DNA of 64,000 nt from a phage. This document shows positions 14,914-32,584 of the stretch, one piece after another. Under the pieces are notes generated by a model. The model had not been told where the DNA came from. It did no database searches and worked only from the letters and a program-made list of their open reading frames with translations. The translations under genes were made by a program, and so were the position numbers. The stretch lies in NCBI GenBank assembly GCA_033664045.1, contig GCA_033664045.1_3674.1. One strand, written 5' to 3'. The first letter of the stretch is position 1. The number at the start of each line of letters is the position of its first letter.

Positions 14914-14988
14914 GCCCTGTTAGCTTAGTGGATAAAGCAGCGGCCTTCTAAGCCGTTGACACTGGTTCGAGTCCAGTACGGGGTGCCA
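14914..14988 (+). tRNA. tRNA-Arg (anticodon TCT)
   Basis: Hand-folded cloverleaf: acceptor GCCCTGT/ACGGGGT with G-U pairs, anticodon loop CTTCTAA, T-loop TTCGAGT, encoded CCA. Ends approximate. Confidence 0.75.
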
Positions 14989-14992
14989 AATT

Positions 14993-15079
14993 GGGGAGTT
15001 ATCCCGTAGAGGTAGCGGTGTAGACTGTAAATCTATTGTCATTGCGACTCGGGTGGTTCGACTCCACCACTCCCCACCA
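14993..15079 (+). tRNA. tRNA-Tyr (anticodon GTA), class II with long variable arm
   Basis: Acceptor GGGGAGT/ACTCCCC, anticodon loop CTGTAAA, T-arm GGTTCGACTCC, encoded CCA; architecture parallels E. coli tRNA-Tyr. Confidence 0.8.
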
Positions 15080-15193
15080 AATTTATATTTTTAAATGTAT
15101 AAATCATACAGATAATGGCATTGATATTTATCGTCGTTTATACTAGTCACTAACTGCTCGAAAATCAGTGTCATTATCAGTATTGTTTATAAA

Positions 15194-15284
15194 AGAGGGT
15201 AGGGAGCAATGGTGCTCAAGCGGTCTTGAAAACCGTCCCGTTGAGGATGACTCGATGATGGTTCGATTCCATTACCCTCTGCCA
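15194..15284 (+). tRNA. tRNA-Ser (anticodon TGA), class II
   Basis: Acceptor AGAGGGT/ACCCTCT, anticodon stem-loop CGGTCTTGAAAACCG, long extra arm, T-arm GGTTCGATTCC, CCA. Confidence 0.75.
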
Positions 15285-15372
15285 TATTGTTGACCTTGTA
15301 ATTAAGCGAAAGCCGGAAGCAGAACCGGATTATCAAATGTTACAGTCGTCATCGCCGACTAGCAACATGGTC

Positions 15373-15481
15373 AACATACTGAGCTAGGTAAGCCCTTTGG
15401 CAAGGGCGAGGATTTTTAATCCTGAAAATAGACGAGGTAGTCGTTGAATACATAGGTGGTTCGATTCCACCGCCTAGCACC
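15373..15481 (+). tRNA. aberrant tRNA-like gene (about 107 nt), possible pseudo-tRNA
   Basis: Perfect acceptor GCTAGGT/GCCTAGC and T-arm GGTGGTTCGATTCCACC, but anticodon region AGGAT-TTTTA-ATCCT and a roughly 30-nt extra arm; CC but no encoded CCA. Confidence 0.35.
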
Positions 15482-15486
15482 TTTTT

Positions 15487-15562
15487 GCTGATGTAGCACA
15501 ATTGGTAATGCAATTGATTTGTAATCAATAGGTTGCAGGTTCAAGTCCTGCCATCAGCACCA
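15487..15562 (+). tRNA. tRNA-Thr (anticodon TGT)
   Basis: Acceptor GCTGATG/CATCAGC, anticodon stem-loop ATTGA-TTTGTAA-TCAAT, T-arm GCAGGTTCAAGTCCTGC, CCA. Confidence 0.8.
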
Positions 15563-15563
15563 A

Positions 15564-15638
15564 GGCCCTGTAGCTGGAAGGTTCAAGCAAGCGACTCATA
15601 ATCGCCAGACGGTGGTTCAATTCCACCCAGGGCCACCA
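15564..15638 (+). tRNA. tRNA-Met-type (anticodon CAT; elongator Met or Ile2 not resolved)
   Basis: Acceptor GGCCCTG/CAGGGCC fully paired, anticodon loop CTCATAA, T-arm GGTGGTTCAATTCCACC, CCA. Confidence 0.7.
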
Positions 15639-15649
15639 AATAATAAATA

Positions 15650-15726
15650 CTCCGCGTAGCTCAGCTTGGTAGAGCGCCTGATTTGGGATCAGGAGGTCGA
15701 GTGTTCGAATCACTCCGTGGAGACCA
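15650..15726 (+). tRNA. tRNA-Pro (anticodon TGG)
   Basis: Acceptor CTCCGCG/CGTGGAG, canonical D-arm GCTCAGCTTGGTAGAGC, anticodon stem-loop CCTGA-TTTGGGA-TCAGG, T-loop TTCGAAT, CCA. Confidence 0.85.
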
Positions 15727-27433: not shown

Positions 27434-28810
27434 ATGCCATATTTAGATAAAGTGGTAGATGTTACAGTTAACCTCGGAACCCAGCCTATTGACACTGTAG
27501 GTTTCGAAACTCCCCTGTTCATCGCTATCCACAACAACTTTACTGAGCGAGCTCGCGTGTATGCAGAGCTGGATCAGATGGTGGAAGATGGTTTCGCACA
27601 AGGCTCTGCAGCGTATGAGTTTGCAGCAAAAGCTTTTGGTGGTGTATTCCCTCCACAATACGTTATGATCGGCAGACAGGCCAAAGAAAAGACAACTGTA
27701 GATTTTAAAGGTATTGCTGCCGCAGCTGATACCGATGTCGTAATGACTATTGCAAAAGGTGGCTACAATACTTCTCTGATAGTGCCTATCTCTGGTGGAA
27801 CAGGTGCAACTCAGATTGCAGAGTCGATGAAGACTAAAATTGAAGCAGATGATAGCTTGAACGATATCACTGTAGAGGCTTCTGAAGGTGTTCTCACCAT
27901 CACTGGTGACTGTACTGTTGGTTACCATACTGGTAACTATACAATCAAAAATATCGCCAATGCTGAAAAACCTTCTACAGTAGTTGATAAGATCAATGCT
28001 GAGCGTGACAATTGGTACTTCCTGTGCCATGAAGACCACACCGACATTGAAGCATGTGCTAAGTGGGCTCAGGCTAACTACAAGCTGCATGTCTACTCTA
28101 CTGCAGAAGATGTGACGGGTAAAGATAATAACATCGCCACCAAACTGATGGCTGCACAATATGACAGTGTCGGCATGTACGATCCTCGTGCAGATAAGGA
28201 CTTCCCGGAGGGTGGTATCATAGGTGCTATGGCATCCAACGATCCGTCTTACGGCGACAGCTTGCACTTAAAACAGATGCCAGGTGTGATTGCACCATCT
28301 CTGACTTTAACTCAGCGTATGGCTATTTGGGAAAACCACGTTAACTTCTATAGAATGATTAACGGTGTTGGCGCTTTCTGGGAAGGTAAGTGTGCTTCAG
28401 GTCAGTATGCAGACGCTATTCGTTTTGCACACTGGATCAAGTTCAGATCTGAAGAGTCCATGTTTGGGTACATGCATCGCCGCTCCAATATGGGTTTAAG
28501 CATGAAGATGTCTGATGATGATCTTCCGGTTATTAAGTCTGTTCTGATGAACAACCCGATCAACACTGGCATTAAGAATGGTGCGATCCTGACAGGTTTT
28601 GACGAAGACAATAATGTATTCTACGACCCGATCATCACAGTTCCTAAACGTGCAGAAATCCCAACTAATCAGTTGGCTGCTCGTGTTCTGGAAGGTGTGA
28701 AAGTAGAACTGGTGTATAATAACGCCCTGCACTTCGTTCGTATCCGGATCAACGTCCTTCTGGACAAAGTTGGTTCTAAATCCACCAATGCTGTTGCAAT
28801 GACTGAATAA
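27434..28810 (+). CDS. tail sheath protein, putative (alternative: large major tail protein)
   Basis: 458-aa abundant-looking protein followed by a 157-aa ORF, then chaperone pair and tape measure (sheath-tube-chaperone-TMP order). Confidence 0.45.
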   Translation: MPYLDKVVDVTVNLGTQPIDTVGFETPLFIAIHNNFTERARVYAELDQMVEDGFAQGSAAYEFAAKAFGGVFPPQYVMIGRQAKEKTTVDFKGIAAAADTDVVMTIAKGGYNTSLIVPISGGTGATQIAESMKTKIEADDSLNDITVEASEGVLTITGDCTVGYHTGNYTIKNIANAEKPSTVVDKINAERDNWYFLCHEDHTDIEACAKWAQANYKLHVYSTAEDVTGKDNNIATKLMAAQYDSVGMYDPRADKDFPEGGIIGAMASNDPSYGDSLHLKQMPGVIAPSLTLTQRMAIWENHVNFYRMINGVGAFWEGKCASGQYADAIRFAHWIKFRSEESMFGYMHRRSNMGLSMKMSDDDLPVIKSVLMNNPINTGIKNGAILTGFDEDNNVFYDPIITVPKRAEIPTNQLAARVLEGVKVELVYNNALHFVRIRINVLLDKVGSKSTNAVAMTE

Positions 28811-28820
28811 GGAAGCCTAG

Positions 28821-29294
28821 ATGGAAACTCAAATTTTAACTCCTTATGCGTATGACCCTAAAAAGGTCAAACTGTATCTGATGCAGCAGCGTGTCACTGG
28901 CTTCGCTGCTGACACCAAGATCGTTGTTTCAAGAAACGAAGACAACATCTACCCTCACGTTGGTGTGGATGGCGAAATGTCTGCGGCCCTGTCTCGTAAC
29001 CAATCTGGTGTTATGACTGTATCTTTGCAGAACACTTCTGTATGGAACGCTTACCTTTCTGACTGGCAGAAACAGGCATCGATTACTGGCCTGGTATTCT
29101 TCCCGGTTCTGCTGGAAGGTAGCCAGGGCCCTGGTATTTCCACAATCGGTTGGATCCAGAAACAGCCTGATCTGACTTACGGAACCGAAGTAGGTCAACT
29201 GGACTGGGATATCGGTATTCTGGATGCATGGCTCAACCGTGATAACATCACTGGTGCTCTTACTGGCCTCGCAGGTCTTGCAGGTATTATCTAA
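28821..29294 (+). CDS. tail tube protein, putative
   Basis: 157-aa ORF between putative sheath and chaperones. Confidence 0.45.
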   Translation: METQILTPYAYDPKKVKLYLMQQRVTGFAADTKIVVSRNEDNIYPHVGVDGEMSAALSRNQSGVMTVSLQNTSVWNAYLSDWQKQASITGLVFFPVLLEGSQGPGISTIGWIQKQPDLTYGTEVGQLDWDIGILDAWLNRDNITGALTGLAGLAGII

Positions 29295-29384
29295 GGGCAC
29301 ACTTTATCATAAGCCTCACCTTCGGGTGGGGCTTTTTGCTTTTATGGTTTTGGCACATACTCTTGAATTGCTTGAAAGGTTAAA

Positions 29385-29413
29385 TTGACAATGCACTATA
29401 ATCATGGTAAAAT
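29385..29413 (+). promoter_or_regulatory. consensus sigma70 promoter with extended -10
   Basis: TTGACA-17 nt-TAAAAT (TGGTAAAATAC). Confidence 0.55.
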
Positions 29414-29456
29414 ACACAAATATGGTGCACAACATGACTAATAAGGATGCTATAAA

Positions 29457-29930
29457 ATGGCTATAAACTTTAGACCTACAACAGAGATTGATTTAGCAGG
29501 GCACAACTTTGTGATCACCCATTGGGGACCGATGAAAGCAATGAAAAACATGCCTAAAATCGGTAAGATTGTGGCTGTCCCGCTAGGTGCTATCGGTGGA
29601 TCTATTATCTCAGGCGGTCAGAATATGGCAGAGGTCCTTCCTACTGCTCTGGCTTACCTGTTCCAAGAACTTGATGATAACTCTATTGAAGAGCTATTTA
29701 AAATCTTGTTCGAAGATATTACCGTAGATGGTGTGGATAAGCTTAACCCGGATGTTGTGTTTGCGGGGCATCTGCTGGAGATGATTAAGCTGGCAGGTAA
29801 GGTTCTGGAGGTTAACTACGGCTGTTTTTTCACACAAGACGGTTTAGGAAGCCTTCTGGAGATGTTACAGCAGATGGGTATGATTCAGCAGGTGAACAAC
29901 CTGGATCAGACTCCGGAAGAGCAGGAATAA
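29457..29930 (+). CDS. tail assembly chaperone (G-like, zero-frame product)
   Basis: Position immediately upstream of tape measure; contains slippery heptamer near its 3' end. Confidence 0.65.
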   Translation: MAINFRPTTEIDLAGHNFVITHWGPMKAMKNMPKIGKIVAVPLGAIGGSIISGGQNMAEVLPTALAYLFQELDDNSIEELFKILFEDITVDGVDKLNPDVVFAGHLLEMIKLAGKVLEVNYGCFFTQDGLGSLLEMLQQMGMIQQVNNLDQTPEEQE

Positions 29931-30190
29931 GCAAGGTTGTTGTGAGGGCCAGTGAGTGGGCAGCCAAGAACAGTTCACTCAACTGGTTCGACTTTCTTTG
30001 GTGCAGGGTGCTCAAGAATTTCAAAGGGGAAAATTTTGAATCGCTAAATCTTGCAGATATGGCGTATTTCCTGAAGCTCTGTGAGTATCTTGATATCGAA
30101 GAATTCCTAGATACCGTCCAAAACAGGGAAATGGAGCGGGAGCAGAAGGCTGCCGCAGCTGCTGCGAAAGCTAAGCGCAGGAGAGGATAA
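29825..30190 (+). CDS. tail assembly chaperone -1 frameshift extension (GT-like fusion with 29457-29831)
   Basis: Zero-frame C TGT TTT TTC gives heptamer U UUU UUC at 29825-29831; the -1 frame is open from there to the stop at 30190. Confidence 0.6.
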   Translation, partial: FFHTRRFRKPSGDVTADGYDSAGEQPGSDSGRAGISKVVVRASEWAAKNSSLNWFDFLWCRVLKNFKGENFESLNLADMAYFLKLCEYLDIEEFLDTVQNREMEREQKAAAAAAKAKRRRG

Positions 30191-30244
30191 TCTAAGGGCC
30201 GGATTCCTTTTCTGGGATCTGGCCCTTTTTATTATGAGGAAACC

Positions 30245-32584
30245 ATGGCTACAAACAAAATAGTTGCCACAACAGTCAACAAGATTGGCTTTGAGATAGA
30301 GAACTCCTCCTACAAAAAAGCTGTAGAGAAAATTCGCAGTATTGGGAGGGAGTTCAGGAAACTGGGCGAGGATTTTAACTCAGCCAACCCCATGAGTAGA
30401 TGGCAGGCGGTAGCTGTTAAAACCCAGCAGACAATGCAGCGGGTTGCCAGACAGCAATCTCAGGCAAATGCTAAGCTGCACAGGGAGAGTGTAGCACAGG
30501 CCAAGAAAGAGGCTGCAGTAAGGGCTGCAATAGAACGTAGGGAGAATGCGAGACGTAAACAAGCTGTAGGTAATCTTACCGCTAAAAATCCAGAAATGGC
30601 TAGGATGCGTAAGTTCTACCAGCAGCAAGCTAAAGAGGCCAAAAAGGCTGCCAAATCTGCACCAGTGTCTTACGGTGGTTATAAGGCACCTAAGGCAAGA
30701 GTTCTGGCTAATGCCAAATCTTTCAAATATATCCCCGGTAACCCTAATATGGGTGGTGTGGCTTCCGACCCTAACCTTGTGAAAGCTCAGACAGCTGCTA
30801 TGAATCGTTATCATAGACAGCTAAGAAGAGACAGTAAAGCTGGTATGGATAATAAGCTTATGTCTGATCGTGAGGCAAGGAGAACCCACCTCTACAACTC
30901 TGCGATAAGACTTTCTGCCAAGTATGGAGCCGGATTCCGTGGAAGCTTGCCAGGATACTCAGAGTTAGAGTCCAGATTTGCTCGCGGGGAGATGAAAAAG
31001 TCAACCTTTAACGCCCACCTGTCAGCTCTGCAGTCCGGATTTAAAAGCGCCACCAGCCAAACGCTTACACTGGGTGATGCCATGAGAGACTTACGTAGAT
31101 CTGTTATTAATGCAACAGCTGCGTATACGGCTTTCTCTGGATTTACTGCTGTGAACAGATCTGGTCACATGATGGAGGGGGCAAGTGCTGCTCTTACTGC
31201 TGTTACTGGAGATCCAAACAAAGCCAACAGTGAGGTTGCGTTTGTCCAGCAAGAGGCTATGCGTCTTGGTTTTGATCTCAAATCTGGTCTTCAAGGTTAC
31301 GCCCAGATGGCGGTAAACGCCAAAAACCAGATGACAAATCAAGAGGTGCACGAGCTATTCTCTGCATACTCACAGTATGCTGCTGCTTACGGTGCCGATG
31401 AGGTAAAATACCAGCGTGGTATCATGGCAATCCAGCAAATGCTTGGTAAAGGACAGGTAATGTCCGAAGAACTGAAGCAACAACTTGCTGAAGCATTGCC
31501 TGGTGCATATGAACCTTTTATCAAGGCCACCAAAGAGGCTTTTGGTCTTTCTGAACTATCCATGGATCAGTTCATGGACATGATGAAGAAAGGTGAGGTT
31601 AAGACAGCCAAGATCATGAAGTATGTGGCTAAGTACATGAACGAGGCATCTGCAGCTGGTTATGAAAGAATGCAGAAGTCTAACGTACTGGCAGAAAACA
31701 GACTGAAAACCTTCATCGAACTGTCTCGTCAGAAACTATTCACCCGTTGGGCTGATGAACTAACAGAGTTCTATTATACACTGATTCGCACTGGTGAGAC
31801 TTTGCAATTTGTGTGGGATGCCTCTGGTGATTTTGTTAGCGGTTTTGTGAGAGGTCTCAACTGGGTAGTTGGTGAACTAAACAATACCATAGTCAAGATC
31901 CGCATGTTTTTCCTTGAATGGGGGATTAAATGGGGATTCATAACAGCTAAGACGAAGGAATATTCTGAAGAGCTTAATGACACCTTTAGCTATGCTAAAT
32001 GGGCAGGGTTTGCTGCTGCCATCATGCTGGTAGTGAACGCCCTGACAAAAGGTTTTGTCATGGCATCTATGCTTGTAAAAACCTTCAAATTCCTTAGTTC
32101 TATAAGAGGTGCAGCTGGAGCAGCAGGTGCAGGTGCAGCTACCACAGAAGGATCTGGTGGTGGTGCGGCAGGAAAAGGGGGAGGTGGCCTCAAGACACCT
32201 GGTGGTAAAGTTGGCCTGCTTGGTAAGCTTGGTATTATCGGTACAATATTAAGCGCCGGGGAGTTATTTAATGACCGTTTCAACCCACTGAGTGAGAGAA
32301 ATCAGCAACTGGATACTATCAGTGATATGATTCGCAAAGATATCATATCTGGAGGTAACGGGTTTGTTGATCCTTTGGACACCTTACCGGGAGGGACTCT
32401 TCCGTTGCCAGGTGGCCCTGGTTTTGCTTCTCAATTAAGAACTATGGAAATGCTCCCTTTAGAGATTAGTGATGGTAAAATCACGATTTCAATAGATGAG
32501 GGTGAGTTTAGCAAAATACTTGATGCAAAACTTGAGTGGGAGAACAACAAGGATATTAACTTTATGTCAACAGATCTTTGGTAA
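30245..32584 (+). CDS. tail tape measure protein
   Basis: 779 aa, long alpha-helical basic N-terminus, central IMAIQQMLGKGQVMSEELKQQLAEALPGAYEPF motif, glycine-rich and hydrophobic C-terminal segments. Confidence 0.85.
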   Translation: MATNKIVATTVNKIGFEIENSSYKKAVEKIRSIGREFRKLGEDFNSANPMSRWQAVAVKTQQTMQRVARQQSQANAKLHRESVAQAKKEAAVRAAIERRENARRKQAVGNLTAKNPEMARMRKFYQQQAKEAKKAAKSAPVSYGGYKAPKARVLANAKSFKYIPGNPNMGGVASDPNLVKAQTAAMNRYHRQLRRDSKAGMDNKLMSDREARRTHLYNSAIRLSAKYGAGFRGSLPGYSELESRFARGEMKKSTFNAHLSALQSGFKSATSQTLTLGDAMRDLRRSVINATAAYTAFSGFTAVNRSGHMMEGASAALTAVTGDPNKANSEVAFVQQEAMRLGFDLKSGLQGYAQMAVNAKNQMTNQEVHELFSAYSQYAAAYGADEVKYQRGIMAIQQMLGKGQVMSEELKQQLAEALPGAYEPFIKATKEAFGLSELSMDQFMDMMKKGEVKTAKIMKYVAKYMNEASAAGYERMQKSNVLAENRLKTFIELSRQKLFTRWADELTEFYYTLIRTGETLQFVWDASGDFVSGFVRGLNWVVGELNNTIVKIRMFFLEWGIKWGFITAKTKEYSEELNDTFSYAKWAGFAAAIMLVVNALTKGFVMASMLVKTFKFLSSIRGAAGAAGAGAATTEGSGGGAAGKGGGGLKTPGGKVGLLGKLGIIGTILSAGELFNDRFNPLSERNQQLDTISDMIRKDIISGGNGFVDPLDTLPGGTLPLPGGPGFASQLRTMEMLPLEISDGKITISIDEGEFSKILDAKLEWENNKDINFMSTDLW

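Follow-up and report, generated by a model that had tools for sequence, protein, structure and literature searches.

Expression of tail assembly chaperones by frameshifting has been known since 1993 and 2004, from the work of Levin (1993) and of Xu, Hendrix and Duda (2004, with further work in 2013 and 2014). Phage P2 offers the myovirus version of the theme, with the E/E+E' chaperone pair encoded between the tube and tape measure genes and a -1 shift on a T-rich heptamer. In the functional model of the lambda G/GT proteins, as summarised in PMC5009743, the G part binds the tape measure protein and the T part the tube protein. In December 2025, a -1 frameshift yielding the TAC-N and TAC-NC proteins was described for Pakpunavirus (Vandenendeviridae) and Andersonviridae, which the authors regard as relatives of the Vequintavirinae (PMC12846349). 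The argument made there is that the chaperone gene has a conserved GTTTTT at its 3' end, that the -1 frame runs on without a stop, and that the 'hypothetical protein' annotated downstream represents the C-terminal portion of the long isoform. The present analysis concerns a putative site of this type at positions 29457-30190 of a phage DNA stretch of 64,000 nucleotides (nt), contig GCA_033664045.1_3674.1 of GenBank assembly GCA_033664045.1, which as a whole is called the window.

The window belongs to an rV5-like Vequintavirus of Escherichia coli, its positions 29300-30300 being 99% identical to the rV5-like Escherichia phages of the genus Vequintavirus (bov10K2, DrSchubert, rV5 and more than 100 others). 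Two overlapping open reading frames (ORFs) are found there between the tube and tape measure genes, namely a zero-frame gene, G, and an ORF in the -1 frame. The favoured explanation, to which a probability of roughly 0.88 is assigned on the basis of sequence comparisons, is that a functional -1 recoding site within G leads to a fusion protein, GT, so that the locus would be a G/GT-type cassette of a contractile-tailed rV5-like phage. The features on which the argument turns are the following.

29457-29930, forward strand: zero-frame gene G, 157 residues, tail assembly chaperone (Pfam Phage_TAC_15, E 2.3e-23, residues 15-129; PHROG 3840, tail assembly chaperone, E 5e-69)
29807-29811, forward strand: Shine-Dalgarno-like GGAGG, candidate stimulator, 13 nt 5' of the heptamer, with the same spacing in Felix O1-like, phAPEC8-like and Av-05 genes
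29813-29815, forward strand: TAA stop in the -1 frame, 9 nt upstream of the heptamer, from the -1 frame translation
29825-29831, forward strand: slippery heptamer T TTT TTC (X XXY YYZ register; P-site codon TTT, A-site codon TTC)
29831-30190, forward strand: -1 continuation ('T' part), with C29831 read twice, 119 codons plus the TAA stop at 30188-30190
29832-29930, forward strand: putative dual-coding overlap, read in frame 0 as the G-specific 32-residue tail and in frame -1 as the GT linker (codon identity 0.72 versus 0.44 upstream)
29942-29944, forward strand: GTG taken in GenBank as the start of a separate 82-residue 'hypothetical protein', with a weak AAGG 5 nt upstream; start not conserved

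The slip site and the two reading frames

Around the site the zero frame reads GGC TGT TTT TTC ACA, with codons starting at 29820, 29823, 29826 and 29829, and T TTT TTC is the sole in-register X XXY YYZ heptamer among the 157 codons of G, the TAA stop of which (29928-29930) is reached 97 nt further on. The -1 frame is open from 29816, i.e. from the end of the upstream TAA, to the TAA at 30188-30190, for a total of 125 codons, and the upstream stop is found at the same distance from the heptamer in PVP-SE1, Av-05, K54_rec2 and KLEP7. Other slip sites or frames were rejected, a second in-register heptamer being absent from G and the +1 frame being closed. To scale the chance of such an open frame, the -1 frames of nine neighbouring genes were used, in which a stop occurs at 9.7% of the codons and the longest stop-free run is of 48 codons, leading to P ~3e-6 for 125 open codons. 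By chance, an in-register heptamer is expected within the 35-codon overlap of a single genome with a frequency of 0.13 (approx. 13%). A lone heptamer in the overlap is not rare and, therefore, the evidential weight rests on the comparative data; chance is excluded because the heptamer is invariant across relatives.

The sequence-only reading of this DNA had placed the heptamer at 29825-29831, about 100 nt before the zero-frame stop, and the end of the open -1 frame at 30190, just 5' of the tape measure gene. These coordinates are correct, the frame being open already from 29816 and the tape measure gene starting at 30245. The identification of the gene as a tail assembly chaperone agrees with the Pfam Phage_TAC_15 and PHROG 3840 matches and with the gene order, and the likeness to the G/GT arrangement of tailed phages is supported by relatives that keep both the heptamer and the -1 ORF and have no conserved downstream start.

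Conservation across relatives

The comparison was extended to 15 annotated GenBank relatives with G identities from 99% down to 28% (Vequintavirus, Seunavirus, Avunavirus, Certrevirus, Phapecoctavirus, Justusliebigvirus-like phages, Plateaulakevirus, Barbavirus and KLEP7), 4 metagenome contigs and 51 IMG/VR contigs. In every locus (15/15, 4/4 and 51/51, respectively) a -1 ORF begins within the final 70-115 nt of G and ends shortly before the tape measure gene. Across Vequintavirinae, Stephanstirmvirinae, Ounavirinae, Plateaulakevirus and uncultured phages, all relatives examined have this ORF, with no conserved start of its own, and, apart from two lineages, the same heptamer. Among 59 distinct G genes, related down to approximately 27% protein identity, the slip site is TTT TTC in 58 and TTT TTT in one, and the preceding codon is TGT in 27, CCT in 13, TCT in 11 and AGT in 8. 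Thus, the residue before the slip site may be Cys, Pro or Ser, but the third base of its codon is T throughout; therefore, selection on the RNA sequence rather than on the protein is indicated. Two lineages have replaced T TTT TTC altogether: Barbavirus carries the lambda heptamer, G GGA AAG, three codons downstream (at 1818-1824 of the locus record of the Rheinheimera phage Barba16S), and KLEP7 carries C CCT TTT.

The choice of synonymous codons leads in the same direction. The fraction of identical codons among identical aligned G residues is 0.44 upstream of the site, 0.83 in the seven codons around it and 0.72 in the overlap, where a raised value is as expected if the overlap is read in two frames. 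Alignment of the conceptual fusions also reveals protein-level conservation of the T part, from approximately ISKVVxRAxxYAxKNSSLxWFDYLW onward. The T part has no match in Pfam; its PHROG match is 10409 (E 1e-50), one of three groups with the label 'unknown function' (10409, 8811 and 16039) that represent the C-terminal chaperone part encoded by the -1 frame (29831-30187).

An unusual record is that of Escherichia phage CL1 (OK040806, Felixounavirus), in which the slip site (657-664) contains T7 and not T6, generating a single fused ORF of 213 residues; it reflects either a homopolymer sequencing error or a real mutant making GT alone.

The predicted products and the proposed mechanism

According to the proposed mechanism, most ribosomes would translate 29457-29930 to give the 157-residue G protein. 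In a minority of cases, the two tRNA-Phe molecules on the P-site TTT and the A-site TTC would slip back by one base and re-pair with TTT TTT, so that these ribosomes would continue in the -1 frame to 30190 and release GT. The conceptual fusion is 244 residues long, with the junction EVNYGCFF/HTRRFRKPSG, and VLEVNYGCFFHTR is the tryptic peptide diagnostic of it. In GT, the chaperone domain (residues 1-125) would be joined through a low-complexity linker to a C-terminal domain of approximately 80 residues, which is conserved. The comparative data suggest that the shift is ribosomal in nature, and its efficiency is probably a few per cent or less. No phage-encoded tRNA-Phe that might influence the shift is present in the window.

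The structural model of G is consistent with this division. AlphaFold, with 27 sequences, gave a mean predicted local distance difference test (pLDDT) value of 67 and a predicted template modelling (pTM) score of 0.62, with confident prediction of residues approximately 8-125, except 44-55, and pLDDT values below 50 from residue 127 through 157. Thus, the slip at codons 124/125 would coincide with the end of the folded chaperone domain, where the confidence of the model falls, and in GT the poorly ordered 32-residue tail of G is predicted to be replaced by the linker and the T domain. A sequence-based search of solved structures returned nothing significant for either G or T.

By analogy with lambda, the role of G and of the G part of GT may be to bind and coat the tape measure protein, while the T part, carried by the less abundant GT, may recruit the tube protein, starting its polymerisation; neither protein would be expected in the virion.

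Alternative explanations

The downstream ORF could instead be an ordinary separate gene (rv5_gp050-like, 82 residues) translated from the GTG at 29942, with the heptamer being incidental. This is how nearly all GenBank records present it, with a separate hypothetical protein annotated at this GTG in FFH2, Mangalyan, JLBYU08 and others; PVP-SE1, 4MG and Av-05 also carry an ATG near the start of the conserved T domain, and independent translation from 29942 is conceivable because of the weak AAGG 5 nt upstream. However, the start codons of the -1 ORF are not conserved among relatives: the annotated ones are spread across a stretch exceeding 130 nt, the ORF is missing altogether from some records and from the output of some gene callers, and in a relative with an 89%-identical G the GTG is lost. 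In K54_rec2, PBES02 and F5M2A, conserved T residues (ALEYARKNSSLKWYDYLYF) are encoded upstream of any ATG, GTG or TTG, the first such codon being located deep within the conserved block; in the relative L019, conserved T residues likewise come before the first potential start. In rV5 itself (DQ832317), ORF 50 was made to start at a CTG (1566-1934, corresponding to 29822-30190 of the window), overlapping ORF 51 by 109 nt; this start, immediately 5' of the heptamer, is an annotation artefact, yet the ORF so defined spans the whole open -1 frame. As no stop interrupts the -1 frame between the heptamer and this ORF in any of the genomes, and as the synonymous sites of G are constrained throughout the overlap, a separate gene is considered very unlikely and, as judged from the sequences compared, initiation at 29942 is not the conserved way of expressing the T sequence.

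Transcriptional slippage, in which one additional U inserted by RNA polymerase at the T6 run would let normal translation yield the same GT, may be proposed since a homopolymeric T run is the type of site at which the polymerase can slip, and the T7 of the CL1 record could be read in the same way. The protein expected (...GCFFHTRR...) would be identical, so that the junction peptide cannot separate the ribosomal from the transcriptional route. However, the run is of six T only, to be compared with the approximately nine A or T associated with productive slippage in bacteria (PMC5009743). Furthermore, its register with respect to the zero frame is kept in 59/59 genes, a feature needed for tandem tRNA re-pairing and not for polymerase slippage, and the heteropolymeric G GGA AAG of Barbavirus and C CCT TTT of KLEP7 are ribosomal-type heptamers with even shorter runs. 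The short run, the strictly kept register and the two lineages with heteropolymeric heptamers make this route highly improbable.

That there is no recoding at all, with the heptamer falling by chance (at the approx. 13% level calculated for a single genome) beside a chance open frame, or with a homopolymer sequencing error splitting one gene, is effectively refuted by the comparative data, given that 59 distinct genes, taken from independent isolates and from metagenomes, show the two-frame T6 arrangement, and that the 125-codon open -1 frame, with P ~3e-6, encodes a conserved protein.

A number of points must be set against programmed frameshifting at this locus. For this phage and its close relatives the case is built on sequence comparisons, and the paper on the rV5 genome and proteome mentions neither a frameshift nor a chaperone. 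The comparative counts are phylogenetically non-independent, and the search that yielded the IMG/VR loci used a peptide pattern with FF as its last residues, which introduces a bias at the amino-acid level, leaving the codon level unaffected. Initiation at 29942 could be an extra route to the T sequence in this phage. Finally, no 3' structure emerged from three approaches: single-sequence folding of 29832-29931 and of 29836-29885 gave energies like those of shuffled sequences (z -1.3 and -0.07, respectively), RNAalifold on 11 relatives gave 0 pairs, and an Rfam E-value scan of 29300-30300 was without match. Thus, the downstream stimulatory structure for which the sequence-only reading had indicated the region 29832-29900 was not borne out. 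A CGAAA/TTTCG hairpin seen by eye in PVP-SE1 was also rejected, since it is not conserved and begins only 2 nt past the heptamer.

Candidate stimulatory elements

Returning to frameshifting by the ribosome, U_UU.C is in E. coli the second most shift-prone tetramer, after A_AA.G, and heptamers of homogeneous pyrimidines with a UUN codon in the A site are among the more shift-prone ones, with an efficiency that strongly depends on stimulators (PMC4066793). At the position of the GGAGG (29807-29811), a Shine-Dalgarno-like core of at least 4 nt (4-5 nt) is found in 43 of the 59 genes, a count to be read bearing in mind that the genes are not phylogenetically independent. The motif also encodes a conserved L-E-V, and its Glu codon is GAG in 43/53 cases (81%), as opposed to 33% GAG elsewhere in the same genes. 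A 5' Shine-Dalgarno element is a stimulator in dnaX and in approximately 56% of insertion sequence (IS) elements (PMC5009743). On account of its recurrence at this position, the GAG enrichment and the stimulatory effect of such elements in dnaX and many IS elements, the GGAGG is rated a plausible candidate 5' stimulator.

A broader proposal may be formulated, but only tentatively, as it is somewhat less probable than its negation. The signal would be independent of structure, with GAGG/GGAGG 13 nt 5' of an invariant T TTT TTC as the sole stimulator, and its nucleotide sequence would have been preserved in no fewer than four phage subfamilies or genera, the chaperones of which share as little as approximately 27% identity. 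The dual coding of approximately 100 nt would give G its own conserved 32-residue tail, so that G would not simply be a truncated GT; together with a conserved terminator after the cassette, the G:GT:tape measure ratio would be set both transcriptionally and translationally.

Gene neighbourhood

The genes and signals that surround the cassette are listed below.

27434-28810, forward strand: tail sheath gene (PHROG 205 tail sheath, E 1e-118; Pfam DUF3383; annotated as tail sheath in the RefSeq record of FFH2)
28821-29294, forward strand: tail tube gene (Pfam PF11681 KPP10_Orf10/Phage_Tube_PhiTE), directly 5' of the chaperone cassette
29311-29334, forward strand: terminator-like hairpin with T run, 3' of the tube gene (10 pairs, of which 6 are GC, in the consensus scan)
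29385-29413, forward strand: sigma-70-like promoter before the chaperone gene, TTGACA-17-TAAAAT with a TG extended -10 (11/12 consensus matches; promoter P51 at the same site in the rV5 GenBank record)
29443-29447, forward strand: ribosome binding site AAGGA, 9 nt 5' of the ATG of G, as read from the sequence
30194-30227, forward strand: intrinsic-terminator hairpin with T run, 3' of the GT stop and 5' of the tape measure gene (14 pairs; a terminator in the rV5 annotation)
30245-32584, forward strand: tape measure protein gene (Pfam TMP_3, E 4e-18; PHROG 5255)

The order is therefore sheath, tube, G (29457-29930), -1 ORF (to 30190) and tape measure. The cassette is bracketed by the terminator after the tube gene, with a near-consensus sigma-70 promoter before G, and by a strong terminator hairpin before the tape measure gene; no promoter is found between the 30194-30227 terminator and the start of the latter. 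This hairpin is kept across the Vequintavirinae with altered stems (PVP-SE1, 4MG, Av-05, K54_rec2, A7_1, PBES02 and F5M2A), and in the comparison across relatives it was absent from phAPEC8-like phages. The terminator may lower transcription of the tape measure gene relative to that of the chaperone. In Barba16S, a reverse-strand gene for a DNA-binding protein (2120-2758) is inserted between the cassette and the tape measure gene.

Elsewhere in the window, a tRNA cluster (14914-15726) encodes tRNAs for Arg, Tyr, Ser, Thr, Met and Pro. Within it, at 15383-15481, ARAGORN reports a 99-nt 'tRNA-???' with a four-base anticodon (atcc), which falls below the gathering score of the Rfam tRNA model; this may represent a degenerate tRNA, or else an atypical tRNA whose anticodon loop is enlarged. 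Among the database sequences, 23 'Campylobacter phage' records (MG0656xx, e.g. MG065646, MG065661 and MG065676; C. jejuni named as host) match E. coli rV5-like phages at the chaperone locus with 98.7-100% identity, and their host label looks doubtful.

Annotation and significance

In the collection of papers that was searched, there was no account of a frameshift in Vequintavirinae, to which the rV5-like phages belong, or in Stephanstirmvirinae, and a joined coding sequence (CDS) was present in none of the 16 records inspected for the two subfamilies. Of the database proteins matching the 244-residue GT, none of 73 spans the fusion, all of them being 149-159 residues long and corresponding to the G half alone. 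Since the mechanism and a homologous site were already known, the rV5-like locus is best described as a new instance of a known mechanism together with an annotation gap, and not as a discovery, and the understanding of phage tail assembly is left unchanged. The gap is wide: in more than 100 Vequintavirus genomes, and in many of Seunavirus, Certrevirus, Avunavirus, Phapecoctavirus and Justusliebigvirus, either the -1 ORF goes uncalled or the records show a separate 'hypothetical protein', the start of which was chosen arbitrarily. Reading it as the frameshifted C-terminus of the chaperone corrects these records, along with the 'unknown function' labels of the PHROGs. The homologous slip sites, including those of the two lineages that replaced the heptamer, also make a natural set for low-efficiency bacterial frameshift signals without 3' structures. 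Smaller points of interest are the candidate 5' stimulator, the length of the putative dual-coding overlap and the terminator conserved between the cassette and the tape measure gene.

Comparison with known systems

With lambda gpG/gpGT the rV5-like locus shares the presence of two overlapping ORFs between the tail shaft (in lambda) or tube gene and the tape measure gene and the lambda site is not known to need a strong 3' structure either. However, the heptamer is G GGA AAG in lambda and T TTT TTC here, no sequence similarity to gpG is detectable, and gpG belongs to another Pfam chaperone family. The rV5-like phage also differs in having a contractile tail, a cassette with its own promoter that is followed by a terminator, and a shift located approximately 100 nt before the G stop, with a G-specific tail of 32 residues and approximately 33 dual-coding codons.

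E. coli dnaX and the IS elements resemble the present site in combining a slippery heptamer with an upstream Shine-Dalgarno-like element, here a candidate stimulator only, which in those systems is located 10-14 nt upstream. They differ in that a 3' hairpin or pseudoknot, 5-9 nt past the heptamer, is also present and the efficiency may reach approximately 50%, whereas a low efficiency is expected of the rV5-like site, for which no 3' structure was found.

In the Pakpunavirus CAb02, the T run is in the register GTT TTT TCT, which is not a canonical tandem-slip heptamer, unlike that of the rV5-like phage, and the Vequintavirinae were outside the analysis of this locus in the study of Pakpunavirus and Andersonviridae (PMC12846349).

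The Felix O1-like phages (Moogle announcement, PMC4319497; Mordin, KT363872) differ in the shorter overlap, with 42 nt to the G stop, and in the GT stop, which abuts the tape measure start with no terminator between them. The frameshift is annotated there, as in Citrobacter phage Mordin (KT363872), the homologous site of which was deposited as a joined, i.e. frameshifted, CDS, in contrast with 0/16 of the inspected Vequintavirinae and Stephanstirmvirinae records. Their chaperone is homologous to that of the rV5-like phage, although weakly so by BLAST (E 2e-4 to 1e-3). The two groups share the motif LE(V/A)N(Y/F)G(C/S)FF, found as LEANFGSFF at the same heptamer in Felixounavirus and Mooglevirus chaperones. 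They also agree in the register of T TTT TTC and in the 13 nt that separate GGAGG from it.
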